The notes under the pieces were generated by a model. The model saw nothing but the letters and a program-made list of their open reading frames with translations, was not told the DNA's origin and made no database searches. Of a stretch of 64,000 nt of DNA, positions 5,327-50,623 are shown piece after piece. Within the stretch, counting starts at the first letter, position 1, and every line of letters starts with the position of its first letter. The stretch is from NCBI GenBank assembly GCA_964636675.1, contig CAZWUO010000001.1, positions 639-64,638 of the forward strand. The letters are read 5' to 3'. The DNA is from an uncultured Ectothiorhodospiraceae bacterium (GTDB lineage Bacteria; Pseudomonadota; Gammaproteobacteria; S012-40). The translations under genes and the position numbers were made by a program.

Positions 5327-5884
5327 ATGATGAAAAACAAATGGATATGTGCTTTTTTGTTGGTGTTAACGGCATCGATAGGTATCGCTAATGCTGAAAA
5401 AGTGACCGTTGGAGAAATAATTGGTTTGGTAATGCTCAATAATGAAGGTGTATTTGTAAAAGTGAATACAGGGATGGAATTAGAAAAAGGTGATCAAATT
5501 TATGTGCTTGAAAATTCTTCGGCATTATTATTACAAGGTAGTGATTGTGCAGCGCGGTTAAATGCCAATGAACTCTTTGAGTTAAATCACTCTGATCTAT
5601 GCGCAAAAAACTCCAGTTTGATTACGTCCAAAGGGCCTCAATTAGTCGCAGCGATCGGCTTGGATGAACCTAACTCTGCAACTGGCTTGGATACAGGGGA
5701 AGCATCTGAAGACCAAGAAAATTCCGTTGGTGAAGATGGAGCAATATTACCGGAAAATCAGAGTTTTTTTTCAGGGATTGCAGCGAAACTAGCAATTCCT
5801 GCAACCTTAACCGGTGCTGTACTATTTTCAACCATTGCAGGTGGTGGTGGTACTGTGCGGCCTGAACCGATTAGTCCAGAATAA
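5327..5884 (+). CDS. Small secreted protein with a FecR-like beta domain and a hydrophobic, Gly-rich C-terminus
   Basis: Signal peptide MMKNKWICAFLLVLTASIGIANA with an AEK cleavage context. Central region aligns by eye with the N-domain of the 621-aa protein at 32081..33946 (G.V...G.V..N...V..G..L..GD.I...ENS.A.L). C-terminus AIPATLTGAVLFSTIAGGGGTVRPEPISPE. Confidence 0.5.
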   Translation: MMKNKWICAFLLVLTASIGIANAEKVTVGEIIGLVMLNNEGVFVKVNTGMELEKGDQIYVLENSSALLLQGSDCAARLNANELFELNHSDLCAKNSSLITSKGPQLVAAIGLDEPNSATGLDTGEASEDQENSVGEDGAILPENQSFFSGIAAKLAIPATLTGAVLFSTIAGGGGTVRPEPISPE

Positions 5885-5925
5885 GTTGTGAGCCAAATAC
5901 AAGTCGTTACTTAGAATATTCTTTA

Positions 5926-7413: not shown

Positions 7414-7456
7414 CCTAGATTCCGCAGTTGACCACGATGCGGCATCGTTAAGCCGC
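7414..7456. repeat. Truncated copy (left terminal inverted repeat plus about 20 bp) of the MITE-like repeat family also present at 15420, 24510 and 35501
   Basis: cctagattccgcagttgacc...ggcatcgttaagccgc matches the 5' end of the 15420..15647 copy. It overlaps the spoVR stop codon. Confidence 0.6.
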
Positions 7457-8953: not shown

Positions 8954-8961
8954 ATAACGTT

Positions 8962-10272: not shown

Positions 10273-12164
10273 TCACAAAGTAAACGTACTTGTTTCGAGG
10301 TGTAGCCTTTGTCTGACATACGTTGCAAGAAGTCATCGTGCTTTTTCTTATCATCAGAGGAAGATTTTGTATTAAATGAGATAACGGGTAAAAGTTCTTC
10401 CGTATTAGAGAACATTTTTTTCTCTATGACATTTCTGAGTTTTTCATAGCTTGTCCAGCTAGGGTTTTTTCCTTTGTTTGCGGCTTTTGCTCGCAGAACA
10501 AAGTTTACGATCTCATTCCTAAAATCTTTAGGATTGCTGATTCCTGCTGGTTTTTCTATTTTTTCCAATTCTTCATTTAGTGCGGATCGACTAAATATTT
10601 CCCCGGTATCTGGGTCACGATAGTCTTCGTCTTGAATCCAATAGTCTGCATAGGTGACATAGCGGTCAAATATATTTTGACCATACTCTGAATAACTTTC
10701 TAGATACGCGGTTTGTATTTCTTTCCCAATAAATCCCACATATTCCCTAGCGAGATATCCTTTGATAAATGACAAATAACGCTCTTCAATTTCAGAAGAG
10801 AATTGTTCTTGTTCTATCTGCTGTTCCAATACATAGAGAAGATGAACCGGATTTGCTGCTATCTCCGAGTTATCATAATTAAACACTCGTGATAGTATTT
10901 TAAACGCGAAGCGAGTCGATAAACCTGTCATTCCTTCATCAACACCGGCAAAATCTGTATATTCTTGATAAGATTTTGCATGGGGGTCAGTATCTTTTAA
11001 ATTTTCTCCATCATAGACTCGCATCTTTGAATAAATATTCGAGTTTTCGGGCTCTTTCAGGCGAGATAATATGGCAAATTGAGCCATCATTTTGAGTGTA
11101 TCGGGCGCGCATGGGGCTTGAGAAAGCGAGCTTTCGCGCAAAAGTTTATTGTAAATTTTGATTTCGTCGGCTACCCGTAAACAGTAAGGGACTTTCACAA
11201 TATAAATTCGATCAAGAAATGCTTCATTATTTTTATTGTTTCTAAATGTTTGCCATTCGGATTCATTGGAGTGAGCAAGGACTATTCCATCGAATGGTAT
11301 AGCACCTAATCCTTCAGTGCCTTTATAGTTACTCTCTTGAGTTGCGGTTAACAGAGGATGTAACACTTTAATCGGTGCTTTAAACATCTCGACAAATTCT
11401 AATAGACCTTGGTTAGCTAAGCATAGTCCTCCTGAATAGCTATAAGCATCAGGATCATCCTGTGCATATTCTTCTAGTTTTCGGATATCTACTTTACCTA
11501 CTAAGCTAGAAATATCTTGGTTGTTTTCATCGCCAGGTTCGGTTTTGGCAATTCCCGATTGCAAAAGTATTGATGGCTTGAGCTTAACAATTTTAAATTT
11601 GGTAATATCGCCATTAAATTCTTGCAACCTTTTTACAGCCCAGGGTGACATCATTCCATTTAGATAGCGACGTGGTATGCCATAATCCTCTTCAAGAATT
11701 TCGGCATCCTCTTCTACGGAAAAAAGTCCCAGAGGAGATTCATTGACGGGGGATCCTTTGATGGCATAGAACGGTGTTACTTCCATCAGTGATTTCAGCT
11801 TTTCTGCTAACGAAGATTTTCCACCACCAACAGGGCCTAACAAATATAGAATTTGTTTTTTCTCTTCTAAGCCTTGTGCCGAGTGTTTGAAATAAGAAAC
11901 TATTTTTTCCACCGCGTCTTCCATGCCGTAAAAATCTTTGAATGCCGGATAAATTTTTATCATGCGATTGGAAAATAATCGGCTCAGCCGTGGATCTGTT
12001 CTTGTATCAATAATTTCTGGTTCGCCAATAGCAGCTAACATTCTTTCCGCTGCGGTAGCATATGCAGAGGAATCAGACTTGCAAAGCGTAAGATACTCCT
12101 GAATGGAATATTCTTCTTCTTTGGCTGCATCAAAACGTGTTTGATAATGATTGAATATGCTCAT
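10242..12164 (-). CDS. prkA: PrkA-family serine protein kinase (AAA-type)
   Basis: 640 aa. Walker A GPVGGGKSS. Strong end-to-end resemblance to E. coli YeaG/PrkA. Confidence 0.9.
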   Translation of the reverse strand: MSIFNHYQTRFDAAKEEEYSIQEYLTLCKSDSSAYATAAERMLAAIGEPEIIDTRTDPRLSRLFSNRMIKIYPAFKDFYGMEDAVEKIVSYFKHSAQGLEEKKQILYLLGPVGGGKSSLAEKLKSLMEVTPFYAIKGSPVNESPLGLFSVEEDAEILEEDYGIPRRYLNGMMSPWAVKRLQEFNGDITKFKIVKLKPSILLQSGIAKTEPGDENNQDISSLVGKVDIRKLEEYAQDDPDAYSYSGGLCLANQGLLEFVEMFKAPIKVLHPLLTATQESNYKGTEGLGAIPFDGIVLAHSNESEWQTFRNNKNNEAFLDRIYIVKVPYCLRVADEIKIYNKLLRESSLSQAPCAPDTLKMMAQFAILSRLKEPENSNIYSKMRVYDGENLKDTDPHAKSYQEYTDFAGVDEGMTGLSTRFAFKILSRVFNYDNSEIAANPVHLLYVLEQQIEQEQFSSEIEERYLSFIKGYLAREYVGFIGKEIQTAYLESYSEYGQNIFDRYVTYADYWIQDEDYRDPDTGEIFSRSALNEELEKIEKPAGISNPKDFRNEIVNFVLRAKAANKGKNPSWTSYEKLRNVIEKKMFSNTEELLPVISFNTKSSSDDKKKHDDFLQRMSDKGYTSKQVRLLCDWYLRVRKSS

Positions 12165-36043: not shown

Positions 36044-37750
36044 ATGAAAGTATTAGTGGTCGATGATGATGCAACGAATAGGCTCGTCTTAAAGGGCTTA
36101 CTCGAAAAAGAAGATCATGATGTTATGCTGGCAGTAAACGGTGTTGAGGCTATTCAACAGTATGAAAATGGCAGTCCAGACCTGATTTTAATGGATGTTA
36201 TGATGCCAGAAATGGATGGCTACGAGGCGACCAGAGAAATCAAAAAGAGGTGTGGTAGCCGATTTGTTCCGATAATATTTTTAACCGCAGTTAGTGGTAA
36301 TGAAGCGTTAGTAACCTGTCTCGAATATGGTGGTGACGATTATATCGGGAAACCTTTCAACCGAACCGTATTAAGCGCAAAAATTGAAGCAATGAACCGC
36401 ATTGTTTCTCTTTATTATCAAATCCAAAACCAAAAAGAAGAGCTTGAAACCCATAAGCGTCATGTTCAGCGCGAAACTGAAGTAGCAGAGAAAATATTTA
36501 ATGGTATTCTTGAGCGCAGTGATTTAAATGTAGACTTTATCAATACCTTAAGACGTTCAGCCGAAGCATTTAATGGTGATATCGTGCTTGCCACGCGTAA
36601 TCCAAACGGGGGGATGAATATATTAGTGGGTGATTTTACAGGTCATGGTTTAGCCGCTGCTATTGGAGCAATGCCTGTCGCTGATGTGTTTTATGGAATG
36701 TCCAAAAAAGGCTTTGAGCTTGAAGACATTGTATCGGAAATAAATAAAAAATTACGTGTTGTCTTACCCATGGGGAGATTTTTGGCGGCGTGTATTATTC
36801 ATGTGGATACACGTTGCGAATACCTAAAAATATGGAACGGAGGAATGCCAGACGTTCTTATTTACCGACCGAGTGCGAAACAAGTAGTAGAATACTTGCC
36901 TTCTGAGCACGTTCCGTTGGGAATCTCTTCTCCTGTTCAGTTTGAAACGCAAGCCACCCGGGTGAAAATCAGCCCTGGCGACTATTTATATATTTATTCT
37001 GACGGTGTCGTTGAAACCACAAACGAACACGATGAGTTATTTGGAATGGATAGATTGGTTGAAGTTATTACTACGTTTGATGGCAACGAGGTTATCAGTG
37101 AATTAGAGGCATCTTTAAGTCGGTTCTCTAATACGCTTCCGCAAGCTGATGATATTACTTTAATGGAGTTTCATTGTAATCCAACTCATTTATTGCAACT
37201 CGATAATGAGATATCAGTTGGTAAAACATATGCAACCAGTTGGAGTATGTCGTTTATTTTTGAAACAGATACCTTACAGCGATTAGATCCAGTCACTTTT
37301 TTAATGAAAACCTTGAGCGAAATACAAGGCCTGCGAAGTCACAGTCAAAGTTTGTTTATGATCATTTCAGAGTTGTTTAGCAATGCGCTTGAGCATGGTG
37401 TGCTTGGCTTAGATTCGAAGTTAAAGACGACGCCTGAGGGATTTGCGCAATATTATTTTTTACGAGAAACTTTATTAAAAAAGATGAAATATGCTTATAT
37501 AAAGTTCAGTTTTTCACAGAAAATCATCGGTAGAGGAGGTGAAATAACCATCGGGGTTGAGGACTCAGGAGATGGGTTTGACTATGCTTCGTTAGGTGGG
37601 GAGAAACAATCAATGCCGCCTGAAAGTGTTAAATCGGGACGCGGACAGGTGCTTATTGCTGATTTGTGTGAGACTATTACCTATAAAGGAAAAGGAAATG
37701 TGGTTGAAGCCGTTTATTCTTGGAATGATACCCCCCTTATCGCGCATTAA
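36044..37750 (+). CDS. Three-domain partner-switching regulator: REC receiver + PP2C (SpoIIE/RsbU-like) phosphatase + RsbW-like GHKL serine kinase (HsbR-like)
   Basis: REC (MKVLVVDDD...DLILMDVMMPEMDG). PP2C block (GDFTGHGLAAAIGAMPV...YIYSDGVVE). GHKL N-box ELFSNALEHG, G1 DSGDGFD, G2 GRGQVLIA. Confidence 0.8.
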   Translation: MKVLVVDDDATNRLVLKGLLEKEDHDVMLAVNGVEAIQQYENGSPDLILMDVMMPEMDGYEATREIKKRCGSRFVPIIFLTAVSGNEALVTCLEYGGDDYIGKPFNRTVLSAKIEAMNRIVSLYYQIQNQKEELETHKRHVQRETEVAEKIFNGILERSDLNVDFINTLRRSAEAFNGDIVLATRNPNGGMNILVGDFTGHGLAAAIGAMPVADVFYGMSKKGFELEDIVSEINKKLRVVLPMGRFLAACIIHVDTRCEYLKIWNGGMPDVLIYRPSAKQVVEYLPSEHVPLGISSPVQFETQATRVKISPGDYLYIYSDGVVETTNEHDELFGMDRLVEVITTFDGNEVISELEASLSRFSNTLPQADDITLMEFHCNPTHLLQLDNEISVGKTYATSWSMSFIFETDTLQRLDPVTFLMKTLSEIQGLRSHSQSLFMIISELFSNALEHGVLGLDSKLKTTPEGFAQYYFLRETLLKKMKYAYIKFSFSQKIIGRGGEITIGVEDSGDGFDYASLGGEKQSMPPESVKSGRGQVLIADLCETITYKGKGNVVEAVYSWNDTPLIAH

Positions 37751-37904
37751 AAGAAAATCAACAGGCGCTAACAAATAGATAATAATGATAATTCTGTGTA
37801 AGCTAGCATCATGACTCCTGGATTCATTTATCACCAATGTATTTTACTGGAGAATATCAACATATCATGCTGAATTAGTTACATAATAATAAGGGGGGTG
37901 ATCT

Positions 37905-38588
37905 TTGATCGTTGTTATAGCAGATGATCATGCCATTGTCAGGGAAGGTGTTATTTATTCTTTAAAGACTCATTTTGGCGAAGAGACACAGGTTTTAGAA
38001 GCAGAAGACTCTCCGAGTTTAGTCGCATTACTTGAGCAAAATAAAAATATCGATCTCATCTTACTGGATCTCATGATGCCAGGTGCAAACGGGCTTTCCG
38101 TGTTAAGAAAAATATGTAATGAATGGCCTGGAAACTCCGTAGTGGTGTTGTCCGCATCAGAAGACTCTACGCTGATGCGTAAATCAATTGATATAGGCGC
38201 CGCAGGCTTTATTCCAAAATCATCACCTCGAGAGGTCATGATGAGTGCTATTAGGTTAGTGCTTGCTGGAGGAGTATATATACCGCCTAAAAGTTTATTG
38301 TCCATAGAAGCAGTCTCAACTTCCTCCGAAGCAACGGAAAATAATAAGTTACCTGATCCAAAAATACTCGCTCCCAAGCTAACCGATAGACAACGACAGG
38401 TATTGATTGGTATCGCTGAAGGCAAAACGAATAGAGAGATCGGAGCAGGGCTAGAACTGTCAGAATATACCATCAAGATTCATGTAACGGCTATATTCAA
38501 AAAACTGCAGGTGAACAATCGCATGCAATCTGTGTTAGTTGCTAAAGAGTTAGGCTTATTCAAGGTGGGTGACCTCACGCCAGACTAA
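37905..38588 (+). CDS. NarL/FixJ-family response regulator (REC + LuxR-type HTH)
   Basis: TTG start after aaggggggtga. REC (DLILLDLMMPGANG). C-terminal LuxR HTH (LTDRQRQVLIGIAEGKTNREIGAGLELSEYTIKIHVTAIFKKL). Confidence 0.8.
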   Translation: MIVVIADDHAIVREGVIYSLKTHFGEETQVLEAEDSPSLVALLEQNKNIDLILLDLMMPGANGLSVLRKICNEWPGNSVVVLSASEDSTLMRKSIDIGAAGFIPKSSPREVMMSAIRLVLAGGVYIPPKSLLSIEAVSTSSEATENNKLPDPKILAPKLTDRQRQVLIGIAEGKTNREIGAGLELSEYTIKIHVTAIFKKLQVNNRMQSVLVAKELGLFKVGDLTPD

Positions 38589-38784
38589 GTGTTTTATTCA
38601 TTTATCGCGTAATGCCCTGAATATTTTTATATCTAAAGATCGCCTAACGGTACCAATCTTAGATTGCCCATTATCTCACCTTCCATTCGGCCCAGAATTA
38701 CTTAGTATTACCAGGGAGCAAAATCCTTCTGACACCGAATAAATGCGCACTCTGCATGCTGTTCAACTGTGGGTTCTAGGATAA

Positions 38785-39537
38785 TTGACGATTATGCAAA
38801 AAAGAAGTAGTGAATCTTCAAAGTACATCGCTTTGGTTGCTGAAGATCATAAATATAATATGATATTGATGGCGAGCTTGTTAGAGAAAAAGAGTGTTAC
38901 TGTTATTCAGGCACGCAATGGTAAGGCCGCCGTTGAGCAATATTTGGCAAATAAAGTGGATATTATATTTATGGATATACACATGCCAGTCATGGACGGC
39001 ATTGAAGCGATTAAAAAGATTCGGACCTTAGAAAAGGGGCAAAATCACGTGCCTATTGTAGTGCTTACGGCCGATGTTTTTATTCGGGAAAATACAGGCT
39101 TAGACACTACTCTAATTGATGAAATTTTACTAAAGCCTATCGTTAGCCAAGATTTATGGAGAGCTTTCGAAAAATTAGCCATCAAAAATTCTCTATCTGA
39201 AAAATCTTGTGAGGCTAAATCGATGCCACAAGCGAAAAGTCCTCAAACAGTCATTTCCAAACATTCTCATAAATTACCCGATGTGCTTAAAGAAAAATTT
39301 ATTAAAGAAGTACACTTATTATATGGGTTAGTTGAGGAGCAATATCGTCTAGGTAATTCAGATAAATTGCAAGAATTACTGCATAAGTTAGCGGGTATGA
39401 GCGGATGTTTTGACGCGACAGAAATGACCGGCATTTGCAATGAGTTGTTGTCCGCGATTAAGAACGAAGATTTAGTGGCAATTGATTTGGCTTTTCAAAA
39501 GTTAACCCAGTATAACGCTGAGTTACCTACCCATTAA
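38785..39537 (+). CDS. REC receiver fused to a C-terminal Hpt phosphotransfer domain (HptB-like function)
   Basis: REC (DIIFMDIHMPVMDG) and a C-terminal Hpt-like helix with LHKLAGMSGCFDA (the HxxKG motif). Confidence 0.75.
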   Translation: MTIMQKRSSESSKYIALVAEDHKYNMILMASLLEKKSVTVIQARNGKAAVEQYLANKVDIIFMDIHMPVMDGIEAIKKIRTLEKGQNHVPIVVLTADVFIRENTGLDTTLIDEILLKPIVSQDLWRAFEKLAIKNSLSEKSCEAKSMPQAKSPQTVISKHSHKLPDVLKEKFIKEVHLLYGLVEEQYRLGNSDKLQELLHKLAGMSGCFDATEMTGICNELLSAIKNEDLVAIDLAFQKLTQYNAELPTH

Positions 39538-39751
39538 GGAATGGGCACGAAATATAGAGATTTAGCCGAATGAATAAGTCTGACCATAAATCATGATACA
39601 TCAGTGATTAAGATCTGGTAAGATCCTATACTTTGAAATCTGTAGTTTAGCGTTAATTCTGGTTTTAGATGAACAACTGAATGCTTATTATACTATATCA
39701 ATAAGCAAACACGCTGGGCTGGGATAGTTCATCAGATAAGAAATAGTTCTT

Positions 39752-42700
39752 TTGGTTATCGCGGATACGGGATGTTTTGTGATTGCGCCTAATGAGATTA
39801 TTGATAAAAACCTTCCAAGGAATGAACTGCTTAGTCGGTTGAGCAGGTTGCACACTAAGTCCGTTGCTTGGGTGAGTGGCCCACCCGGTGCGGGGAAAAC
39901 AAATCTTGTTGCAACTTATGTGAAAAGGCAAACATCTGTCATTATATGGTACGAGGTAGAGGTTGGAGACGAGGACCCCGCGACATTTTTCCATTATTTA
40001 TCAGAGAATATAAAGAAAAAATGTGGCTTAGCTGAGAACTGGATTAACCCTTTAAAACCGGAATACCTATTATCTATTGATGTTTACGCAAGGCAGTTTT
40101 TTCAATTGTTGTGTCAGAATATCGATGAATCTTTTACGTTGGTTTTTGACCAATATCAGGAATTACCCAATAAATCCATTATTCATGATCTCATCAAGCA
40201 CTTCATTCGTGCCATACCTAGCCACAGTTCGATTATTTTTATTAGCCGATCTGACCCACCGGCAGCACTCGCACGTTTTGTTATCAATCAAGAAATTGAA
40301 TGTATAGGTTGGAATGATCTACGTTTTTCGGAAAATGAAATTGATGCGCTGGGACATTTGTGGGGATTCTGTCATGATGAAATGCAACTATTAGAAGAAG
40401 CAAAGTCGCAGATAAACGGGTGGGTAGCTGGTGCAGTAATCATTTGCGATTTTATTCGCAACGTTAAAAAAACGCCAGCCATAAAAGATTTATCTAACTC
40501 GGACATTTTGTTGAATTATTTTTCCGGTGAAATATTAAATAAACTCAGCGAGATCGAAAAGAATTTTTTATTTCAAATATCTTTCTTGCCGCGTTTTTCT
40601 GTTGCAGCAGCAATAGAGCTTACAGGAATCGATGACGCGCTACATATTATTGAGCAGTTACACAGTAATCATTCTTTTACTGAGAAGTTAGGTTATTCAT
40701 CAAATGAATATCAGCTACACCCTTTATTCAGAAGGTTTTTACGCTCGCGCATAAAGGATGAGTTATCTAAATCAGATATTTTAAATATTAAACACAGAGC
40801 GGCTTCTTGTTTAGAAAAACAAGGACTCGTCGAGCATGCCATCACACTTTGGTATGAAACCGAGCAATGGGACATGCTTGCGCGGATTGCAGAAAGCTAT
40901 ACCGACACACTGATTGAGCAAGGTCGCGGTAGTACGGTTGCAAAGTGGTTTCAACAAATACCGCCTGCTGTTGTCGATAAATACCCTTGTTTTGCTTATT
41001 GGAGAGCAAGGGCAATTATGCCTTATGACACCAAAGAGGCGCTAAGACTATACCGGTTTGCCTACGAAAAATATGTGCTTTTAGATACTGATGTTAATAA
41101 AAAATGGTTATGTTGGGCAGGATGTGTCGCTACCTATATACACGACTGGAAATCATTTGATGATCTGGATTATTGGATTAGTGAATTACCTTTTTTGCCT
41201 TGTAGCTTCCCACCAGCTTGTAGTATCGAAACCAAAGCCAGTGTTACTTCTGCTATGTTTATTGCGTTATTATTTAGGCAACCCGATCACTCACACTTTA
41301 TTTTGTGGGAAGAGGCCAGCCTAGCATTAGTAAAGAGTGAGTTGAATATCAATCAAAAAATCACGACTGGAAATTGCTTGGTTCTTTATTATTCTTGGAT
41401 TGCCGATTTCCCCAAGTGTCAAGTCATTATGGAAACCATGCGCGAGAATATTTCTCAGCCAGACGTATTGCCGCTTACTCGAATTATTTGGCATTCTATG
41501 GAGGCGATGTATGCTTGGCTGGGCTTGAAACCGCAGCGATGTGAAGAGATTGTTTCCAAGGGCTTAGCATTGGCGAATGATTATGGAATTAAGATTTGGG
41601 ATTTTATGCTCAACGCCCAAGGGGCTTACGGAAAACTTTCTTCTGGACAATTAGCGGGTGCTACCAAATATTTGAAAAATATGTCACGATCCGTTAGTGG
41701 GGGAAGGTCTCTTGATGCATCTCAGTATTACTATTTGAGTGCATGGGTTGCGGTATTAAAAAAGGATTACCCCCAGGCTTTAGAAAAAATTAAATTTGCG
41801 AGTGATTTGACCAAGGACGCGGGATCTCCATTTCCTACTACTTTTGTAGACATTGCTCTGTCGCAGGTGTTGTTTGAGCAAGGCGAAAAATCACGTGCGC
41901 GCGTGATTATTAAACATGTGAACAGCATAGCAGATTCGTTGCGTAGTCGGCATTTTAAACATCATAGTCTTTTAGTGTTGGCTTATTTTGATTTAATGGA
42001 TGGGAGTTACGAGCAAGGAATTAATTATCTAGAGCAAGGATTCAGATTCGCCCGTGAAAATCATTTTTTGAGTCTTATATGGTGGCGTCCTGAGCTTATG
42101 TCTAAGCTTTGCGGAATTGCTTTGTTGCATAATATCGAAGCGGAGTACGTCAAAGAGTTAATTATAAAAAATGAATTAACTCCCGATGAAAAATATCTTG
42201 GACTAGAGCAATGGCCTTGGCAAGTAAAAATCACTTCATTCAATCATTTTACTTTATTCAAAAATGACATACTTTTTGGGTCTTCCGGAAAATCTCAAGT
42301 AAAACCTTTAGATTTATTAAAGGTGTTACTGGCTTATGGAGGCAAAAGCGTTAGTGTCACAAAAATCACAGACTGTTTGTGGCCTGATGCAGACGGTGAT
42401 ATGGGGCAGCACTCATTTAGTACTACGTTATATAGGTTACGCAAACTATTAGGCTGTGAAAATTCCTTACTTCTCAATAATGCGCAATTGAGTTTAAATC
42501 CTATATTTTGCTGGACAGATGTCTGGGCAATTGAAATGCTTGAGAAAAAAATAGAGCAGAAACTACTGGAAGCTACATTCGATCCAAGCACAGCAGCGTG
42601 TTTAGAGATCGAGCTATTTAATTTGTATCAGGGTGCATTTTTAAGTCTGGAAAGTGAAAAACCTTGGTTTTTTATAAAGCGCGAAAAAGAAAGAAATCGT

Positions 42701-42967
42701 TTTATTCGGATCGCAGAACATATAGGGAAATATTGGCTCGATAATTCGCAGATAGATAATGCGATTCGTTTTTATCAAAAAGCGATCGAAATCGATTACT
42801 TGGTGGAATCGTTTTACCAACAGCTTATCCTTGCTTATCAACGTGCCGGACGAAAAGCCGAGGCTAATTCAGTTTATAAACAATGTGAGCAAGCATTAAG
42901 TGACTTTGACGACATAAGGCCGAGCGAGAAGACCAAGAAAATTTTTCGTGACTGTATGAGTTCTTAA
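39752..42967 (+). CDS. Large STAND-type regulator: N-terminal NTPase (MalT/NB-ARC-like), central helical/TPR region, C-terminal OmpR-type winged helix plus BTAD-like domain
   Basis: Walker A GPPGAGKTN and Walker B LVFDQYQE. C-terminal wHTH-like block LLKVLLAYGGKSVSVTKITDCLWPD...TTLYRLRKLLG followed by TPR-like helices (IRFYQKAIEIDYLVESFYQQLILAYQRAGRKAEA). TTG start. Confidence 0.7.
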   Translation: MVIADTGCFVIAPNEIIDKNLPRNELLSRLSRLHTKSVAWVSGPPGAGKTNLVATYVKRQTSVIIWYEVEVGDEDPATFFHYLSENIKKKCGLAENWINPLKPEYLLSIDVYARQFFQLLCQNIDESFTLVFDQYQELPNKSIIHDLIKHFIRAIPSHSSIIFISRSDPPAALARFVINQEIECIGWNDLRFSENEIDALGHLWGFCHDEMQLLEEAKSQINGWVAGAVIICDFIRNVKKTPAIKDLSNSDILLNYFSGEILNKLSEIEKNFLFQISFLPRFSVAAAIELTGIDDALHIIEQLHSNHSFTEKLGYSSNEYQLHPLFRRFLRSRIKDELSKSDILNIKHRAASCLEKQGLVEHAITLWYETEQWDMLARIAESYTDTLIEQGRGSTVAKWFQQIPPAVVDKYPCFAYWRARAIMPYDTKEALRLYRFAYEKYVLLDTDVNKKWLCWAGCVATYIHDWKSFDDLDYWISELPFLPCSFPPACSIETKASVTSAMFIALLFRQPDHSHFILWEEASLALVKSELNINQKITTGNCLVLYYSWIADFPKCQVIMETMRENISQPDVLPLTRIIWHSMEAMYAWLGLKPQRCEEIVSKGLALANDYGIKIWDFMLNAQGAYGKLSSGQLAGATKYLKNMSRSVSGGRSLDASQYYYLSAWVAVLKKDYPQALEKIKFASDLTKDAGSPFPTTFVDIALSQVLFEQGEKSRARVIIKHVNSIADSLRSRHFKHHSLLVLAYFDLMDGSYEQGINYLEQGFRFARENHFLSLIWWRPELMSKLCGIALLHNIEAEYVKELIIKNELTPDEKYLGLEQWPWQVKITSFNHFTLFKNDILFGSSGKSQVKPLDLLKVLLAYGGKSVSVTKITDCLWPDADGDMGQHSFSTTLYRLRKLLGCENSLLLNNAQLSLNPIFCWTDVWAIEMLEKKIEQKLLEATFDPSTAACLEIELFNLYQGAFLSLESEKPWFFIKREKERNRFIRIAEHIGKYWLDNSQIDNAIRFYQKAIEIDYLVESFYQQLILAYQRAGRKAEANSVYKQCEQALSDFDDIRPSEKTKKIFRDCMSS

Positions 42968-43224: not shown

Positions 43225-45663
43225 ATGAAAGAAAAATTGGTATTGGTTGGCAACGGTATGGCAGGTGTTCGTACGCTAGAGGAACTCCTAAAAATTGCGC
43301 CCGATAAATACGCTATTACTGTTTTTGGTTCCGAACCCTATGGGAATTACAATCGTATATTATTATCGCCTGTGTTAGCAGGAGAGAAGTCGTTAAATGA
43401 AATTATGCTCAATGATGAGCAATGGTATAAAGATAACGATATTACTTTGCTTAAAGGTAATAAGATTACAAAAATTGACCGCAAAAATAAAACGGTCATC
43501 GCTGAAGATGGCACCCAGGCCTCCTATGATCGTCTATTGCTAAGCACCGGCTCCAATCCATTTATGATCCCTATTCCCGGTATCGAGTTGCCGGGTGTTA
43601 TCAGTTTTCGTGATGTGCATGATGTTGATCAAATGTTAGATGCGAGTAAAAAGCATAAACATGCCGTAGTCATCGGTGGTGGGTTACTGGGTCTGGAAGC
43701 CGCGAATGGGTTAATGACCCAAGGCATGAACGTCACCGTTGTTCATCTTGGTGACACATTAATGGAACGCCAGATGGATACGGTATCCGGAAAAATGTTG
43801 CAAACCTCGTTAGAGCAACGTGGTTTGCATTTTTTAATGGAACACGCCACAGAAGCGATACTGGGCGAGGATAGAGTCAAAGCCGTGCGTTTTAAAAGTG
43901 GCCTTGAGATAGCTGCAGACATCGTAGTGATGGCCGTAGGTATACGGCCAAATACTGAGCTTGCTGAAAGCGCAGGTATTTATGCTGAACGTGGTATCGT
44001 CGTTGATGACACCATGCAAACATATGATCCAAAGATTTACGCAGTCGGTGAATGTGTGCAACATCGCGGTTCAACCTATGGACTCGTTGCTCCGCTGTTT
44101 GAGCAAGCGAAGGTTTGTGCAAACCATCTCGCGGAATACGGTATCGGTCGATATCAAGGATCGGTGACCTCGACAAAACTAAAAGTGACCGGCATTGATT
44201 TATTTTCAGCCGGTGATTTTAACGGTGACGAGCAGACTGAAGAGTTGGTGATGCAAGATGTGTCACGTGGCATTTATAAAAAGTTAGTCATTAAGGATAA
44301 TAAAATAAGTGGCGCAGTCATGTACGGTGATACGGTAGATGGTGCATGGTATTTCCAATTATTGCGTGACGAAACAGATATCTCGGATATTCGGCATAAC
44401 TTGCTTTTTGGGCAAGCGCACTTAGGTGATTCTGGGCATGGTGGGCATAATCTTGCGGCTCAAATGACCGACGCTACCGAAGTCTGTGGTTGTAATGGAG
44501 TATGCAAAGGCGATATTACTAAAGCGATTACCAGTAAAGGCTTGTTTACCTTAGACGATGTCAGAGCCCATACCAAGGCTTCTGCTTCCTGTGGATCGTG
44601 TACCGGTCTGGTAGAACAAATTATTGCCTCGACGCTTGGTGGTGATTATTCAGAAGCATCAAAAGTAAAGTCAATCTGTAAATGTACAGAGCATACACAC
44701 GAAGAAATTCAAGCTGAAATAAAGGCCCATAAGCTCACAAGCTATCGTGCAGTAATCGATAAAATGGATTGGCATACTGCGGATGGTTGTCATGTTTGTA
44801 GACCGGCACTTAATTATTATGTATTAGCGGCATGGCCAGCGGAAGCAGTTGATGATCCTCAATCACGTTATATCAATGAACGTGTGCATGCAAACATTCA
44901 AAAAGATGGCACCTATTCGGTAGTGCCGCGCATGTGGGGAGGGGTAACAAACCCTAAAGAGTTACGCGCGATTGCAGATGTCGCTGAAAAATACGATGTC
45001 CCTACGGTAAAAGTCACCGGTGGTCAACGTATCGATTTACTCGGTGTCAAAAAACAAGATCTTCCGTTAATGTGGAAAGACTTAAATGATGCAGGCATGG
45101 TTTCTGGTCATGCTTATGGTAAGTCTCTGCGAACGGTTAAAACCTGTGTTGGTAAGGAGCATTGTCGCTTCGGCACCCAATATTCTATGGCATTAGGGAT
45201 TAAGCTCGAAAAACTAACCTGGGGTTCATGGATGCCACACAAATTTAAAATCGCGGTATCGGGTTGTCCGCGTAATTGTGCAGAAGCAACCATTAAGGAC
45301 TTTGGCGTGGTCGCAGTAGATTCGGGTTATGAATTACATGTCGGTGGTAATGGTGGTATAAAAGTCCGCGCAACCGACCTTTTGTGCAAGGTAACGACGG
45401 AAGAAGAAGTCATCGAATACTGCAATGCCTTTATTCAAATGTATCGAGAGCAAGCGCATTATTTAGAGCGCACTGCGCCGTGGATAGAACGTGTAGGATT
45501 GTCGTTTCTGAAAACCCATATTGTCGAGGATGAAAAAAATAGAATAGCGTTATCCAAGCGTTTTGTTGAGTCGCAATCCTATGTGCAAAAAGATCCTTGG
45601 GAAGAAAGAACAACGGGTGATTACGAAAAACATCAGTTTGTTACTTTAAAAGATGTCTCGTAA
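43225..45663 (+). CDS. nirB: Assimilatory NAD(P)H nitrite reductase large subunit
   Basis: FAD/NAD Rossmann motifs (LVLVGNGMAG, AVVIGGGLLGLEAA), BFD-like [2Fe-2S] region and siroheme/4Fe-4S Cys cluster (CGCNGVC, CVGKEHC). 812 aa. Confidence 0.9.
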   Translation: MKEKLVLVGNGMAGVRTLEELLKIAPDKYAITVFGSEPYGNYNRILLSPVLAGEKSLNEIMLNDEQWYKDNDITLLKGNKITKIDRKNKTVIAEDGTQASYDRLLLSTGSNPFMIPIPGIELPGVISFRDVHDVDQMLDASKKHKHAVVIGGGLLGLEAANGLMTQGMNVTVVHLGDTLMERQMDTVSGKMLQTSLEQRGLHFLMEHATEAILGEDRVKAVRFKSGLEIAADIVVMAVGIRPNTELAESAGIYAERGIVVDDTMQTYDPKIYAVGECVQHRGSTYGLVAPLFEQAKVCANHLAEYGIGRYQGSVTSTKLKVTGIDLFSAGDFNGDEQTEELVMQDVSRGIYKKLVIKDNKISGAVMYGDTVDGAWYFQLLRDETDISDIRHNLLFGQAHLGDSGHGGHNLAAQMTDATEVCGCNGVCKGDITKAITSKGLFTLDDVRAHTKASASCGSCTGLVEQIIASTLGGDYSEASKVKSICKCTEHTHEEIQAEIKAHKLTSYRAVIDKMDWHTADGCHVCRPALNYYVLAAWPAEAVDDPQSRYINERVHANIQKDGTYSVVPRMWGGVTNPKELRAIADVAEKYDVPTVKVTGGQRIDLLGVKKQDLPLMWKDLNDAGMVSGHAYGKSLRTVKTCVGKEHCRFGTQYSMALGIKLEKLTWGSWMPHKFKIAVSGCPRNCAEATIKDFGVVAVDSGYELHVGGNGGIKVRATDLLCKVTTEEEVIEYCNAFIQMYREQAHYLERTAPWIERVGLSFLKTHIVEDEKNRIALSKRFVESQSYVQKDPWEERTTGDYEKHQFVTLKDVS

Positions 45664-45690: not shown

Positions 45691-45999
45691 ATGACACAAT
45701 ATATTGAAGTAGGAAAAATTGAAGATATTCCAAAGTTAGGTTCTCGCGTCATAAAGACCGGGGAAGGGGATGTCGCTGTTTTTAGAACAAGTGATGATGA
45801 AATATTTGCGCTAAAAGACAGTTGTCCGCATCAAGCCGGGCCACTTTCGCAAGGCATTGTACACGGCAAAAAAGTCACATGTCCGTTACATAATTGGGTG
45901 ATTCAACTTGCAGACGGCGAAGTGATTGCTCCCGACGAAGGGTGTGCCGCAACCTACCCGGTAAAAATTGAAAACGCCATCGTTTTTATAAAACTCTAA
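45691..45999 (+). CDS. nirD: Nitrite reductase small subunit (Rieske-like)
   Basis: 102 aa. CPH...CPLH Rieske-type motif (DSCPHQAGPLSQG...VTCPLHNW). Confidence 0.85.
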   Translation: MTQYIEVGKIEDIPKLGSRVIKTGEGDVAVFRTSDDEIFALKDSCPHQAGPLSQGIVHGKKVTCPLHNWVIQLADGEVIAPDEGCAATYPVKIENAIVFIKL

Positions 46000-46027: not shown

Positions 46028-48214
46028 ATGCTAATTACTCGCCCGATAAAGAATGAAATAAAATTACCCGGAAAACAAGATGAAGTTGTTGCCTGGAAAT
46101 ATACGACCTGTGGTTATTGCTCCACCGGTTGCTCGATCGAAGTGGGGGTCAATGAAAAAGGTGAGGGTATAAAAGCCCGTGGTGTCGGCAACGCAGATGT
46201 GAATCAAGGAAAATTGTGTTTAAAAGGTATTTTTGAGCATGAGTTATTCACTTCCTCGGGGCGTGGAACCATTCCATTGGTGCGCGATAAAATTTTTGAA
46301 GACTATAAAGAAAGCACCTGGGATGCGGCGCTGGATAAAACAGTATCTGAAATCGAACGTATTCAAAAAAAATATGGCAGAGATAGTTTTGCGATTGTAT
46401 CAACCGGTCAAATATTGACTGAAGAATTTTATACCTTGGGGAAACTCGCCCGTGGGGTTATCGGCACGAATAATTACGACGGTAATACAACGCTGTGCAT
46501 GGCCTCTGCCGTTTCGGGTTATAAACGGTCATTTGGTTCGGATGGCCCTCCGGGATGTTATGATGATTTTTCACATACGGATTGTTTGCTTGCCTTTGGT
46601 TCCAACTTACCCGAGCAACACCCCGTTATCTATTGGCGACTCAAGCAGGCGCTTGAAAAGAAAAAATTCCCCCTCATCGTCGTTGACCCTCGGGTAACGA
46701 TGTTTGCGCAATTTGCAGACATGCATTTACCGATAACCCCCGGAACCGATGTCGTGCTGCTGAATAGCTTGGCACACGTTATTCTTGACGAGGGTTTGGA
46801 AGATCGTGCCTATATAGATGCACACACCTCAAACGCTGAGGAATTCGAGAAGCTCGTCGAAAAATACAACCCCGTGATGGCCGCGAAACAATGTGGCATC
46901 GACGAAGATACGATTCGCAATGTGGCGCGATTGTATGCCAAATCCGATGCCGCGATGAGTATCTGGACCATGGGCATTAACCAAAGCACGCATGGCTCTG
47001 ACGGTGTGGTCGGCATTAATAGTTTGAATTTGATTACCGGTAATATTGGCAAAAAAGGCGGTACGAGTTTATCTATTACCGGACAATGCAATGCGATGGG
47101 TACACGAGAATGGTCATCTTGTTCGGGTTTGCCCGGTTATCGTGTGCTTGAAAAAGAACAAGATCGAGAAGACATTGCTAAATTTTGGGGTATTGATCCT
47201 GAGTTTTTCCCTAAAAAACGCGGCTTATTCCAAACAGATATTTTTCCTGCGATAGAAACCGGTCAAATAAAGGGATTGTGGATCATTGCCACTAACCCAA
47301 TGACCTCAATGCCGAATACCGCTAGGATTAGAAAAACATTTGAACAATTGGAATTCTGTGTGGTGCAAGATGCTTATCGTGATGTGGAAACCACAGAATA
47401 TGCACATGTCTATTTTCCTGCGGGATTATGGGCAGAAAAAGAAGGGTGCATGACTAATACCGAAAGAAGGGTGAATTTTATTAGTAATGTTTTGCCCGCG
47501 CACGCTGATTCAAAACCTGATCTATGGATATTTAATCAGCTGGCAAAACGCTTTGACAACGGGAAAAAAATGACATTTCCCGATTCAGCCTCCGCGGTAT
47601 TTGATGAAATGCGCGAGCTTTCGAAGGGACGTTTTCTTGATATTTCGGGCATGTCGCACAAAAAAATAGAAGAAAACCGAGGTTTGCAATGGCCGATGAA
47701 AGAAGATGCAGAAGTAGGATCGGCACGATTATATGAAGACGGAAAGTTTAACCATCCGGATAAAAAAGCCAAGCTAATAGCACTTGATTTTGTTGATAAC
47801 AACGAAGTCCCCGACGAAAAATATCCCTTCTGGTTGAATAGCGGGCGTGTTGTCGAACATTTTCATACCCGAACACGCACCGGAAAAATAGGCAATCTCA
47901 ATAAATTCAGTCCAACGCCCTATATGGAAATGAACCCAGATGTCGCCGCAGAACTTGGTGTGGAACATATGACTTATGTGCGCTTAGTCTCGCGCCGCGG
48001 AGATTCGGTGGTACTCGTACAACTGACTCAGCGGGTACCCCGAAATATGGTCTTTATTCCTTTCCATTTTCATGAATGTGTTAACCGCCTGAGTCTTGGG
48101 TTATTAGACCCTTATTCGCGACAACCTGCATTTAAGCAATGTGCCGTGCGTATAGAAAAGGTGAGTAAACAAGAAGCTGCAGCGCTCACCAATAAATCCA
48201 TTAGAGCGTTTTAA
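46028..48214 (+). CDS. nasA: Assimilatory nitrate reductase catalytic subunit (molybdopterin oxidoreductase, NasA type), cytoplasmic
   Basis: N-terminal 4Fe-4S motif CGYCSTGCSIEV, MopB domains, no twin-arginine signal. Immediately downstream of nirBD. Confidence 0.8.
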   Translation: MLITRPIKNEIKLPGKQDEVVAWKYTTCGYCSTGCSIEVGVNEKGEGIKARGVGNADVNQGKLCLKGIFEHELFTSSGRGTIPLVRDKIFEDYKESTWDAALDKTVSEIERIQKKYGRDSFAIVSTGQILTEEFYTLGKLARGVIGTNNYDGNTTLCMASAVSGYKRSFGSDGPPGCYDDFSHTDCLLAFGSNLPEQHPVIYWRLKQALEKKKFPLIVVDPRVTMFAQFADMHLPITPGTDVVLLNSLAHVILDEGLEDRAYIDAHTSNAEEFEKLVEKYNPVMAAKQCGIDEDTIRNVARLYAKSDAAMSIWTMGINQSTHGSDGVVGINSLNLITGNIGKKGGTSLSITGQCNAMGTREWSSCSGLPGYRVLEKEQDREDIAKFWGIDPEFFPKKRGLFQTDIFPAIETGQIKGLWIIATNPMTSMPNTARIRKTFEQLEFCVVQDAYRDVETTEYAHVYFPAGLWAEKEGCMTNTERRVNFISNVLPAHADSKPDLWIFNQLAKRFDNGKKMTFPDSASAVFDEMRELSKGRFLDISGMSHKKIEENRGLQWPMKEDAEVGSARLYEDGKFNHPDKKAKLIALDFVDNNEVPDEKYPFWLNSGRVVEHFHTRTRTGKIGNLNKFSPTPYMEMNPDVAAELGVEHMTYVRLVSRRGDSVVLVQLTQRVPRNMVFIPFHFHECVNRLSLGLLDPYSRQPAFKQCAVRIEKVSKQEAAALTNKSIRAF

Positions 48215-48232
48215 TGTTAGCAGGAGTCTTAT

Positions 48233-50197
48233 ATGTTTAAAGTTCGTGATGACGAACCGAGTTATGCATTTATTCCCGATGTAGAAACCTCTGATATAAA
48301 CCAATGGGGAAAAAAAATTGAAACCGTCACAGAAGATGACGCGGCGCGGGGTAAATCATTAAATATAAACGGCGATAGCGGCGTAGGCTCAAATGTTAAC
48401 CGTTACAAACAACATGGTTTTCATTTTACCGCCGATAATTGCATTGGCTGTCACGCGTGTGAAGCGGCATGCAGTGAAAAAAACGATTTACCGGCGTATT
48501 TAAGTTTTCGTTCAGTGGGCTATATTGAAGGTGGAAGTTATCCCGCCTATCAACGACTCAATATTTCCATGGCCTGTAATCATTGTGATGATCCAGTGTG
48601 TTTAAAAGGTTGTCCTACCCGCGCATATACAAAATATCCAGAATACGGTGCCGTATTACAAGACCCAGATACCTGTTTTGGTTGTGGCTACTGCACCTGG
48701 GTTTGCCCCTATAACGCGCCCCAACTGGATTTATCCAAAGGCGAAGTATCAAAATGCAATATGTGTGTAGATCGCTTAGAAGTGGGACTAAAACCCGCGT
48801 GTGCAGCAGCTTGTCTAGGCAGTGCATTGGATTTTGGATTAATCGAAACAACGCCTGAGCACAAAGAACAAGCAAAAATTAATATACCAGGGTTTCCTGA
48901 TCCTCGTATCACCAACCCAAATATTCGTTTTCAACAAACCCGCTCATTACCCCGAGAGATGACCCGCACTGACTCGCAACCCTTGCGTTATCAACGCGAC
49001 GAGCAAGGGCAGGGCGAGTATAAAAGCAAGGCCGTTAATCAATCGCTGAGCAAAGAATGGAGCTTTAAAAAACTCAGTTCACGCGAAAATCCCTTAGTCA
49101 TTTTTACGCTGATATCACAGGCGGTAGTGGGCGCATTCTCGCTATTATATTTAGCACCCTTATTCGGAGTATCCGAGCTTTCAAGCGCGAGTAATCCTAT
49201 TACGGTGCTCAGCATGTTGATCTTTATGTTCGTTATACAAGTTGCTGCCCTGGGCATGTCAACCATGCATCTTGGCAAGCCACACCGTTTTTATCGTGCC
49301 TTTAATAATTTGAAATATTCACCGGTGGGCCGAGAAGTGGCCTCGTTAGCGGTATTTTTTACGTTATTTGCAGGCTATGTATTTTTGGAGTCGGGTTTAT
49401 TATCTGGGTTGCCAGAAACGGTGGTAAGCACTGCATCTCATATTATAGGTCTCTTAGCACTCGTCATGGGGCCGATCTTTATTTATGCGATGCATAAAAT
49501 TTATCGTATAGAGGCACGCCCATTTTGGAATCATTGGCAGGTGTTGACCACTTTTTTTGGCAATACGCTCGCATTAGGGGCTTTATTAGTAATACTTTCA
49601 TTTGCCTTTTCAATGGCACTACAGTCACAAAGCTTTCTACCACTCATTAGCATACTCGCACCGATATTGTTATTCGGCTTATTGCTCGAGGGCTATGGTT
49701 TATATCAACACAAAAAGGATTTACAGAAAACAGGTGGCGAAGGTGCTGCTGCACAATTGGTGCAAGAAACCAGGTTTGGAAAAACGTATCAACTGCGCAA
49801 CCTGGCCTTGGGAGTATCAATAAGTATCGTCGGCATATTATCTCTTGCCAATATTGAAGGCTTCATCGGCTTTGTCGCATGGTTTTTAGTCGGTGCGCTT
49901 ATTATTGCGACGGCGGTCGTAGGGCGAGCTTTATTTTATGTATTAGTCATACCCACTACCATGCCCGGTGCCTTTTTCTGGAAAAACACGGGTTTTCAAG
50001 ACCATGCTAGAGAAACCGGTTTAGCCGACATGCAACAAGTTGGCGTGTTACCTAAAACCGATTACCATCATGAACTCATGGCCAGAGCCAAAGCAGATAT
50101 CGCCGCAGAAATAGCGCAAATTCGGCAAGAAGGTTGGCTAAAAGGCATTACTGCTCGGTTGTTTAAAAGAGTAAAAATTATAAAAGAAGGTTTATAA
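48233..50197 (+). CDS. Fusion of a four-cluster ferredoxin (DmsB/NarH-like) with a polytopic DmsC/NrfD-like membrane anchor
   Basis: aggag SD 18 nt after the nasA stop. Four Cys clusters (CIGCHACEAAC, CNHCDDPVCLKGCP, CFGCGYCTWVCP, CNMCVDRL...CAAAC). Then about 8 TM helices including MHLGKPHRFYRAF (DmsC-like motif). No signal peptide. Confidence 0.7.
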   Translation: MFKVRDDEPSYAFIPDVETSDINQWGKKIETVTEDDAARGKSLNINGDSGVGSNVNRYKQHGFHFTADNCIGCHACEAACSEKNDLPAYLSFRSVGYIEGGSYPAYQRLNISMACNHCDDPVCLKGCPTRAYTKYPEYGAVLQDPDTCFGCGYCTWVCPYNAPQLDLSKGEVSKCNMCVDRLEVGLKPACAAACLGSALDFGLIETTPEHKEQAKINIPGFPDPRITNPNIRFQQTRSLPREMTRTDSQPLRYQRDEQGQGEYKSKAVNQSLSKEWSFKKLSSRENPLVIFTLISQAVVGAFSLLYLAPLFGVSELSSASNPITVLSMLIFMFVIQVAALGMSTMHLGKPHRFYRAFNNLKYSPVGREVASLAVFFTLFAGYVFLESGLLSGLPETVVSTASHIIGLLALVMGPIFIYAMHKIYRIEARPFWNHWQVLTTFFGNTLALGALLVILSFAFSMALQSQSFLPLISILAPILLFGLLLEGYGLYQHKKDLQKTGGEGAAAQLVQETRFGKTYQLRNLALGVSISIVGILSLANIEGFIGFVAWFLVGALIIATAVVGRALFYVLVIPTTMPGAFFWKNTGFQDHARETGLADMQQVGVLPKTDYHHELMARAKADIAAEIAQIRQEGWLKGITARLFKRVKIIKEGL

Positions 50198-50287: not shown

Positions 50288-50623
50288 ATGAGCGATGTTG
50301 GGGAAGAGCACGAAGAAGTTTTCCTGATTACCCAAGCGTGGGTGAAGCCAGGGACTTTTGAAGAACTCAAAGCATATCGCATAAAGGTTCTAAAGATTCT
50401 GGAACCATTTTCACCCGATTTTATTTTTTATAATCATCCATTTGAATGGGTATTTGACGCTGGGGAAGATGAGACTCCCAGCGGCATAGAAGTTTGCCGA
50501 TTTCAAAATGAACAAATCGCCCGTGCAGCAATAGCAGCCATTGAAAGTTCAGGTATACGTGCGGAAGAAAGTAATGTTTTTAGGAAAATTCGAAGTTACT
50601 TAAGCTGTTATTCCTTGCGCTAG
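50288..50623 (+). CDS. Small hypothetical protein (111 aa)
   Basis: ORF with plausible start. No confident motif. Confidence 0.45.
   Translation: MSDVGEEHEEVFLITQAWVKPGTFEELKAYRIKVLKILEPFSPDFIFYNHPFEWVFDAGEDETPSGIEVCRFQNEQIARAAIAAIESSGIRAEESNVFRKIRSYLSCYSLR

Follow-up and report, generated by a model that had tools for sequence, protein, structure and literature searches.

Results

A molybdoenzyme gene closely followed by a DmsB-DmsC fusion gene

The stretch of DNA analysed here, 64,000 nucleotides (nt) from contig CAZWUO010000001.1 of an uncultured Ectothiorhodospiraceae bacterium (hereafter, the window), contains four closely spaced genes on the + strand: nirB, nirD, a gene for a molybdoenzyme of 728 amino acids (aa) and a gene for a 654-aa protein in which a DmsB-type iron-sulfur (FeS) domain is fused to a DmsC/NrfD-type membrane anchor. 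We propose, with a probability of about 0.6, that the products of the last two genes form a membrane-bound, cytoplasm-facing quinol:nitrate oxidoreductase that would deliver assimilatory nitrite to NirBD. Each part is of a known type (Nas/Nap, DmsB, DmsC/NrfD); their combination and orientation are not as the literature describes them.

The gene for the catalytic molybdopterin subunit, assigned to the nitrate-reductase type from Pfam domains, motifs and trees, spans positions 46028..48214 (+) and ends with a TAA stop at 48212-48214. The ATG of the fusion gene lies at 48233, leaving an 18-nt intergenic spacer (48215..48232, +) in which direct reading identifies the Shine-Dalgarno sequence AGGAG (48222-48226). 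The fusion gene itself (48233..50197, +) was recognised as encoding an electron-transfer and membrane-anchor subunit through Pfam, NCBIfam and alignment to E. coli DmsB. The outer coordinates of the pair, the size of the fusion protein and the 18-nt gap are exactly those given in a first-pass annotation of this DNA, made from the letters without database searches. A promoter and terminator scan gave matches no commoner than in shuffled sequence, and none inside the spacer. The two genes appear tightly coupled and co-transcribed.

The 728-aa subunit groups with nitrate reductases

The 728-aa protein carries the Pfam domains Molybdop_Fe4S4 (PF04879), Molybdopterin (PF00384) and Molydop_binding (PF01568). 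Close to its N-terminus lies the Cys motif for a [4Fe-4S] cluster (FS0; C28, C31, C35 and C64; 46109..46219, +), read directly and aligned with those of NapA, NasC and FdhF. Alignment to D. desulfuricans NapA and to FdhF predicts Cys157, followed by Met158 (46496..46501, +), as the molybdenum ligand. The motif in which these residues lie, LCMASAV, is shared with D. desulfuricans NapA (LCMASAV), whereas formate dehydrogenase H (FdhH) has Sec-His there. Thr351 (in SITGQCN) occupies the position of Arg333 of FdhH, as it does in all aligned Nas and Nap sequences. Alignment to solved structures thus settles the nitrate-reductase class.

Trees were built by neighbour-joining with our own distance code, 100 bootstrap replicates and few reference sequences. 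They place the 728-aa subunit within the Nas/Nap nitrate reductase group and exclude E. coli FdhF at bootstrap values of 98-99. Inside the group, the subunit belongs to its own clade (100%), apart from NapA, and Paracoccus NasC and the approximately 900-aa proteobacterial NasA make up another clade (100%). Identity is about 35-38% to classical Nas, 32% to NapA and 30% to FdhF. The highest-scoring NCBIfam profiles were Fdh-alpha (571 bits, cut-off 666), NasC (NF047855; 506, cut-off 1100), haloarchaeal NasA (NF041323; 470, cut-off 1000) and NapA (409). A plasmid collection yielded no member of the clade, the best matches being at most 38% identical and all annotated "nitrate reductase". Close homologues bear public names such as "assimilatory nitrate reductase catalytic subunit" or "nitrate reductase". 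Judged by tree and active-site residues, the subunit represents a distinct clade of the Nas/Nap group and not a classical NasA. The first-pass annotation had called the protein NasA; its assignment to nitrate reductases as opposed to formate dehydrogenases stands, and the NasA label has to be given up. Formate dehydrogenase identity was considered and rejected, as the Sec/Cys-His pair and Arg333 are replaced as in Nap/Nas and the tree sets FdhF apart.

Orthologues of the 728-aa subunit share the N-terminus MLFGRxxKNPIKIADKGVVEWKYTTCGYCSTGC, in which 27 residues without a hydrophobic stretch precede the first cluster Cys of the window protein. Periplasmic export was likewise rejected: the orthologues starting MLFGRR... 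have no hydrophobic stretch in the approximately 25 residues before the first Cys. Being short and devoid of a hydrophobic core, this N-terminus is not an export signal.

Two further features of the segment deserve mention. The motif MLFGR[RK]xKNPIK (window 46028-46108, also loci L048, L062 and L080) has Arg-Arg in some orthologues, with no hydrophobic region; the Arg-Arg N-terminus may be the remnant of a twin-arginine translocation (Tat) signal kept for chaperone binding. Such a Tat-remnant N-terminus, kept for chaperone binding, is present in NarG. The sequence WKYTTCGYC resembles the start of mature NapA (KWDKAPCRFC).

Four cluster motifs and an eight-helix anchor in one chain

The fusion protein begins with a polar extension (aa 1-59; 48233..48409, +), E. 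coli DmsB aligning only from residue 60. The extension lacks signal-peptide features; four of its residues (R5, Y11, N46 and R57) are invariant in a set of 52 sequences. It is followed by a DmsB-type four-cluster domain (aa 60-206; 48410..48850, +) with 40% identity to full-length E. coli DmsB. The 16 cysteines of this domain show the DmsB spacing (C70/73/76/80, C115/118/123/127, C148/151/154/158 and C175/178/190/194), and all are invariant in the 52 sequences. The Pfam profile Fer4_11 matches the domain with 78.9 bits (cut-off 26.2). A linker (aa 207-284; 48851..49084, +), defined by hydropathy and counts of lysine plus arginine (K+R), is basic near the first transmembrane helix (TM1).

The DmsC/NrfD-type anchor (aa 285-571; 49085..49945, +) was delimited by Pfam PF04976, hydropathy and AlphaFold2. 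It matches PF04976 from profile position 7 to 275 of 275, with 76.6 bits against a cut-off of 22.3, and has eight helices (aa 288-306, 323-341, 372-390, 398-420, 445-463, 467-485, 521-539 and 545-563). All eight are reproduced in the AlphaFold2 model, at a predicted local distance difference test score (pLDDT) above 90 for most anchor helices. The top Foldseek matches of the anchor are the NrfD-like proteins ActC and PsrC. The chain ends in a basic tail (aa 572-654; 49946..50194, +) for which hydropathy, K+R counts and AlphaFold2 suggest two helices; its last 40 or so residues are confined to the closest relatives. The four Cys clusters and the DmsC/NrfD-like anchor that the first-pass annotation had read from the translation are thus upheld by the DmsB alignment, PF04976 and hydropathy. 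In public annotation the fusion goes under "DMSO [dimethyl sulfoxide] reductase anchor subunit" or "DmsC/YnfH family".

Predicted cytoplasmic orientation of the FeS domain and the quinol site

As anticipated in the first-pass annotation, no Tat or Sec signal is present on either protein, the fusion beginning with its 59 polar residues. Nor was a twin-arginine signal found in the homologues screened (genome loci and distant fusions). As far as is known, an FeS domain depends on Tat to get to the periplasm.

The distribution of charges points the same way. Across 120 homologues, the loops on the FeS side contain on average 5.0 (loop 2-3), 3.4 (loop 4-5) and 3.7 (loop 6-7) K+R; the 30 residues ahead of TM1 average a further 7.7, and the C-terminal tail 8.9. 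The means for the opposite loops (1-2, 3-4, 5-6 and 7-8) are 0.12, 0.03, 0.11 and 0.00. In E. coli DmsC, whose DmsB side is periplasmic, the bias is reversed and weaker (K+R 3 on the DmsB side versus 6). Because positive charge gathers on the FeS side, the FeS domain and the quinol-site loops are predicted to be cytoplasmic, as the first-pass annotation had supposed for the FeS domain, and the DmsBC module to be turned over in the membrane relative to that of E. coli.

The loop after TM2 contains the motif MHLGKPHRFYRAF at residues 345-357 of the fusion. Alignment with E. coli DmsC defines a predicted quinol-site loop (49268..49336, +) in which His346 and Glu368 correspond to His65 and Glu87; both are invariant in the 52 sequences, and distant fusions retain HLG[KR]P...SW[LV]SRE. 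According to the passage of PMC13059093 that cites Geijer and Weiner 2004, DmsABC is inactive when DmsC has the H65R change, and the binding of menaquinol depends to an important degree on Glu87. Since the His346/Glu368 loop lies on the FeS side, the quinol site is predicted to be at the cytoplasmic face of the anchor.

The two genes remain adjacent across deep divergence

A scan of species-representative genomes identified 80 full-length relatives of the fusion with 55-70% identity. Their carriers are mostly uncultured Gamma- and Betaproteobacteria and include Chromatiales, Thiohalobacter, Acidiferrobacterales, Thiobacillaceae, Gallionellaceae and Methylocaldum. In every locus with upstream DNA (73 of 73), a molybdoenzyme gene whose product is 68-83% identical to that of the window lies directly upstream of the fusion gene, at a median distance of 57 nt. 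Conversely, look-ups seeded with the molybdoenzyme found the fusion adjoining in three of three cases, including the isolate Sulfurirhabdus autotrophica. The commonest gene order is nirB-nirD-molybdoenzyme-fusion. Upstream there is often a PP2C/kinase gene together with a divergent gene for a NarK-type transporter, and genes downstream of the fusion often specify MobB, a DsrC-like protein or a small protein with two helices. In the isolate Sulfuriflexus mobilis, the cluster has this same order and contains no other nitrate reductase.

Clustered representatives revealed many more signal-less DmsB-DmsC fusions at 31-48% identity. The automatic caller miscounts helices in some of the sequences and in the query itself, so that only fusions called with eight helices were compared; their charge bias matches that of the close relatives. 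In 46 of 51 informative metagenome loci of this distant type, a molybdoenzyme gene of the same clade lies directly downstream of the fusion gene, that is, in swapped order. The encoded enzymes are 41-47% identical to that of the window and keep the motifs GNTTLCMASAV and SITGQCNAMG; nirB is nearby in 15 of the 30 loci with enough downstream DNA. In the tree, all fusion-linked molybdoenzymes come together (bootstrap 73). The first-pass annotation had suggested a search for the same pair in relatives. Recurrence at all related loci examined excludes chance juxtaposition, and adjacency that outlasts deep divergence and a swap in gene order indicates that the molybdoenzyme and the fusion are a functional pair.

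Across the loci the context is of the assimilatory kind, comprising nirBD, the NarK-type transporter, the PP2C/kinase gene (which we take to be the one of the Pseudomonas nas cluster) and MobB. Only the Methylocaldum locus (L028) also has genes for a NasS-like binding protein and for a response regulator that we took as NasT-like.

Several other genes recur just 3′ of the fusion. In 14 loci it is a gene for a DsrC/TusE-family protein (about 113-123 aa, PF04358; for example L082 11874-12215, L017 2354-2710 and L024 11863-12204), absent from the window. The penultimate C-terminal Cys that functional DsrC possesses is missing from all of these proteins: the inner Cys is the only one left in one subtype, and members of the other have one Cys or none overall. 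In about 21 loci, the neighbour encodes a small protein of about 110-122 aa, apparently of a two-helix membrane type, without a Pfam match and with the conserved sequence LERAVF...KH.LRG..WP.Y (for example L074 11994-12362 and L012 11940-12287). It is often followed by the gene for MobB, which functions in molybdopterin guanine dinucleotide (MGD) synthesis and fits a bis-MGD enzyme. Finally, genes for a MoxR-type AAA+ ATPase and a VWA-domain protein come after the fusion in five loci (L022, 1927-5109; L040, L044, L047 and L075); they may specify a maturation or insertion pair for the enzyme.

Coexistence with classical NasA

About nine loci also carry a gene for a classical NasA of approximately 900 aa close by. 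L028 has the arrangement narK, kinase, nirB, nirD, molybdoenzyme, fusion, NasA, NasS-like protein and response regulator. In the Motiliproteus locus (L073), a gene for a NasC-type NirB-like flavoprotein precedes the classical NasA gene beside the pair, implying that each catalytic subunit has its own electron-transfer partner. The anchored and the classical Nas are thus alternative systems and not parts of one enzyme. The window has no classical NasA, only the anchored type.

A separate arrangement was seen on a Brevibacillus laterosporus plasmid (L088, 2908-6109), where a Bacillus-type NasC-like gene (724 aa) follows an open reading frame (ORF) of 346 aa whose N-terminal stretch looks hydrophobic. 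A 430-aa ORF, presumably for a transporter, also precedes the NasC-like gene. The locus could represent another membrane-linked arrangement for a Nas-type enzyme.

Surroundings of the cluster in the window

Upstream of the pair, nirB (43225..45663, +) encodes the 812-aa large subunit of NAD(P)H nitrite reductase (TIGR02374, 955.9 bits; cut-off 578), with a flavin adenine dinucleotide (FAD)/NAD domain, a BFD-type 2Fe-2S domain and a sirohaem/4Fe-4S domain (Pfam Pyr_redox_2, Fer2_BFD and NIR_SIR). The 102-aa small subunit is encoded by nirD (45691..45999, +; TIGR02378, 101.8 bits; cut-off 74.65). In keeping with the first-pass annotation, tblastn with probes of the NarK and NrtABC types, a transmembrane screen and family scans all failed to reveal a nitrate transporter in the window. 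An Rfam scan of the window gave no match.

The DNA is approximately 40% G+C and its nearest relatives are uncultured Gammaproteobacteria. Apart from the cluster, the window has ordinary chromosomal content, with exopolysaccharide/PEP-CTERM genes, prkA-yeaH-spoVR, fliA, leuCDB, asd and htpG, and with tatD, lgt and thyA downstream of the cluster. The prkA-yeaH-spoVR stress-kinase cluster and the XrtA/PEP-CTERM exopolysaccharide genes occupy 7448-12164 (-) and 79-7407 (+); the latter group includes genes for a tyrosine autokinase, a PEP-CTERM ATPase and a Wzy-like polymerase.

Directly 5′ of nirB lies a run of regulator genes (36044-42967, +) specifying a PP2C (SpoIIE) response regulator, a response regulator of the LuxR type, a receiver-Hpt protein and an ATPase regulator of 1071 aa that is MalT/BTAD-like. 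Its presence instead of the NarK and PP2C/kinase genes (and of the NasS/NasT-like genes of L028) suggests that the cluster is regulated differently in this organism. Directly 3′ of the fusion gene is an ORF of 111 aa (50288-50623, +). Since it has no Pfam or NCBIfam match and is unlike the small proteins encoded downstream in related loci, it is probably not part of the system.

Discussion

Comparison with known enzymes

With the soluble assimilatory nitrate reductases (Klebsiella NasA/NasC, Paracoccus NasC with NasG/NasB, Bacillus NasC/NasB and cyanobacterial NarB), the 728-aa subunit has in common that it is a cytoplasmic Mo-bis-MGD enzyme of the Nas/Nap type, with a 4Fe-4S cluster at its N-terminus and a Cys ligand within C-M-[AS]-[ST]-A, and that its gene clusters with nirBD and, in related loci, with a nitrate transporter gene. 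It differs in forming a separate clade, in lacking the C-terminal 2Fe-2S (BFD) domain of the approximately 900-aa NasA and in having as its conserved partner a membrane-anchored four-cluster protein instead of a flavoprotein, ferredoxin or flavodoxin. According to a phylogenetic survey from 2020, canonical four-cluster or anchor subunits do not accompany any member of the Fdh/Nas/Aio/Nap clade (PMC7331816). Our full-text search of the literature, with subscription journals outside its reach, retrieved no account of DmsBC as the partner of a Nas enzyme, and the text of the supplement to the Sulfurirhabdus autotrophica genome/proteomics paper contains nothing on these proteins.

The fusion resembles E. 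coli DmsB-DmsC in its Cys spacing, its end-to-end match to the DmsC profile, its eight helices and its equivalents of His65 and Glu87. Unlike DmsB-DmsC, it is a single fused chain, without a Tat-exported partner and, by its charge bias, with inverted orientation, and its catalytic partner is a Nas/Nap-type enzyme and not DmsA.

Like NarGHI, the pair is predicted to be membrane-bound with a cytoplasmic active site, and an FeS chain would lead to it from quinol. NarGHI serves assimilation in Mycobacterium tuberculosis. The differences are several: NarG is much larger and has an Asp ligand, whereas the 728-aa subunit has a Cys ligand and no NarG match; the FeS domain scores 52 bits with the NarH profile TIGR01660, against a cut-off of 524; and the anchor is of the haem-free DmsC type, not a di-haem NarI. 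The predicted quinol site, moreover, is cytoplasmic and not periplasmic as in NarI, so that no Nar-type redox loop would be expected. The term "mini-Nar-like" used in the first-pass annotation is therefore apt for the side of the membrane and misleading as to energy coupling.

In topology the pair is, by description, like SoeABC, which also combines a cytoplasm-facing molybdoenzyme, an FeS subunit and an anchor of the NrfD/DmsC family. SoeABC is cytoplasmic, carries out quinone-linked sulfite oxidation and occurs in the same kinds of bacteria (PMC6303296, PMC6397845). It consists of three separate subunits and oxidises sulfite while reducing quinone; here the B and C parts are fused and electrons would be expected to flow from quinol to the substrate. 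Orthology of the 728-aa subunit to SoeA is unlikely, because the subunit has nitrate-reductase motifs.

A proposed quinol-fed route to assimilatory nitrite

We envisage that quinol would bind at the cytoplasmic face of the DmsC-type domain, near His346 and Glu368, and that two electrons would travel through the fused DmsB-type domain, by way of its four [4Fe-4S] clusters, to the N-terminal [4Fe-4S] cluster of the 728-aa subunit and on to its Mo-bis-MGD centre (Cys157). Nitrate would be reduced to nitrite in the cytoplasm and the nitrite handed on to NirBD. By standard potentials, the transfer from ubiquinol (approximately +0.1 V) to nitrate (approximately +0.42 V) is downhill. As quinol oxidation and nitrate reduction would both take place on one side of the membrane, the simplest expectation is a reaction without any build-up of membrane potential. 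NAD(P)H, for which lithoautotrophs depend on reverse electron flow, would be spared by it. The quinol donor, the direction of electron flow, the physical complex, the assimilatory role and the lack of proton translocation are what we infer from the domain identities, the conservation of cofactor ligands, the missing export signals, the charge bias, the type of active site and the constant pairing. The first-pass annotation had likewise drawn the electrons from the quinone pool and not from NAD(P)H or ferredoxin: pairing and topology favour this interpretation, and the Rieske-type NirD leaves room for a route from NADH.

A number of points weigh against the proposal. The 728-aa subunit scores below every NCBIfam equivalog cut-off, as does the DmsB-type domain for TIGR02951 (DMSO_dmsB; 159.5 versus 214.1 bits). 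The FeS domain has a pLDDT of 30-40 in the AlphaFold2 model, too unreliable for cluster distances and packing to be taken from it, and the orientation was derived from hydropathy and the positive-inside rule, with charges averaged over homologues. NrfD-type subunits can move protons across the membrane (PMC6303296), and the enzyme might thus contribute to membrane potential. Where a classical NasA is also encoded, the role of the anchored enzyme may be specialised rather than general. Last, the properties of NirB and NirD admit other readings, as follows.

The ligands for a Rieske cluster in the NirD of the window (CPH...CPLH), like those of Paracoccus NasG and matched by CxH...CxxH in 29 of 29 orthologues of this type, together with the FAD/NAD and BFD 2Fe-2S domains of NirB, fit a path from NADH through NirB and NirD to the 728-aa subunit, on the model of Paracoccus NasB-NasG-NasC. 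Gates et al. are said to have reported in 2011 that NasG passes electrons to NasC, and a Paracoccus-type nasABGHC cluster was seen at L085. The fusion would then be a secondary or overflow link to quinone, or a mere tether holding the enzyme at the membrane, for instance near a nitrate transporter. We regard this as improbable. Six loci in which NirD is of the E. coli type, devoid of Rieske ligands, still keep the pair, and among distant loci the pair is nearly constant whereas nirB is nearby in just half of those that could be scored (15/30). A tether, furthermore, needs neither 16 invariant cluster cysteines nor invariant quinol-site residues.

The same quinol-to-nitrate chemistry could also serve a dissimilatory or redox-balancing purpose, the quinone pool being re-oxidised at low oxygen and NirBD acting as electron sink or detoxifier. 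In E. coli, nirBD is dissimilatory as well, so genetic context gives no strict proof of assimilation, and the architecture of the pair parallels that of respiratory complex iron-sulfur molybdoenzymes. The presence of a classical NasA beside the pair in several genomes suggests a division of labour, and response regulators, one of them LuxR-type, are encoded upstream in the window. Yet it is not obvious what energy would be gained with a quinol site on the cytoplasmic side, aerobic or microaerobic lithotrophs and methanotrophs are frequent among the hosts, and the context is nas-type (NarK-type transporter and PP2C/kinase, with NasS/NasT-like proteins in L028) with no respiratory accessory genes; we judge this possibility to be about as small as that of the NADH path. 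Far less credible still is the use of another substrate (chlorate, selenate or some other oxyanion), or operation in reverse in the manner of SoeABC, with an incidental link to nirBD. That no NCBIfam equivalog cut-off is reached and that the clade stands apart from all characterised Nas/Nap enzymes would suit the former, and SoeABC provides a precedent for a cytoplasmic, DmsC/NrfD-anchored enzyme that reduces quinone. The active-site motifs, however, are those of Nap/Nas nitrate reductases, and the association with nirBD and a nitrate transporter is found in two deeply diverged clades. By standard potentials, nitrite oxidation coupled to quinone reduction is thermodynamically unfavourable.

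Implications

If the quinol:nitrate oxidoreductase proposed here is real, it would add a fourth donor class to the NADH-, ferredoxin- and flavodoxin-dependent assimilatory nitrate reductases; the textbook donors of Nas are soluble NADH, ferredoxin or flavodoxin. It would also overturn the survey statement that the Nas/Nap/Fdh clade never uses the four-cluster and anchor module, and, with SoeABC as the first case, would be the second in which an NrfD/DmsC-type module operates from the cytoplasmic side. In hundreds of genomes the label "DMSO reductase anchor subunit" would be wrong for these genes and would inflate the apparent potential for DMSO respiration in metagenome surveys. Conceivably, though at somewhat less than even odds, anchored quinol-fed Nas enzymes make up a widespread and hitherto undescribed class on which many Proteobacteria that oxidise sulfur, iron or methane rely chiefly or solely for nitrate assimilation, and which has a deeply diverged sister clade among bacteria of soil and sediment. 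In this organism, as in many sulfur oxidisers, methane oxidisers and soil bacteria, the electrons for nitrate assimilation probably come from membrane quinol and not from NADH or ferredoxin, and the energy accounting of the process would change accordingly in chemolithoautotrophs and methanotrophs, for which NAD(P)H is costly.

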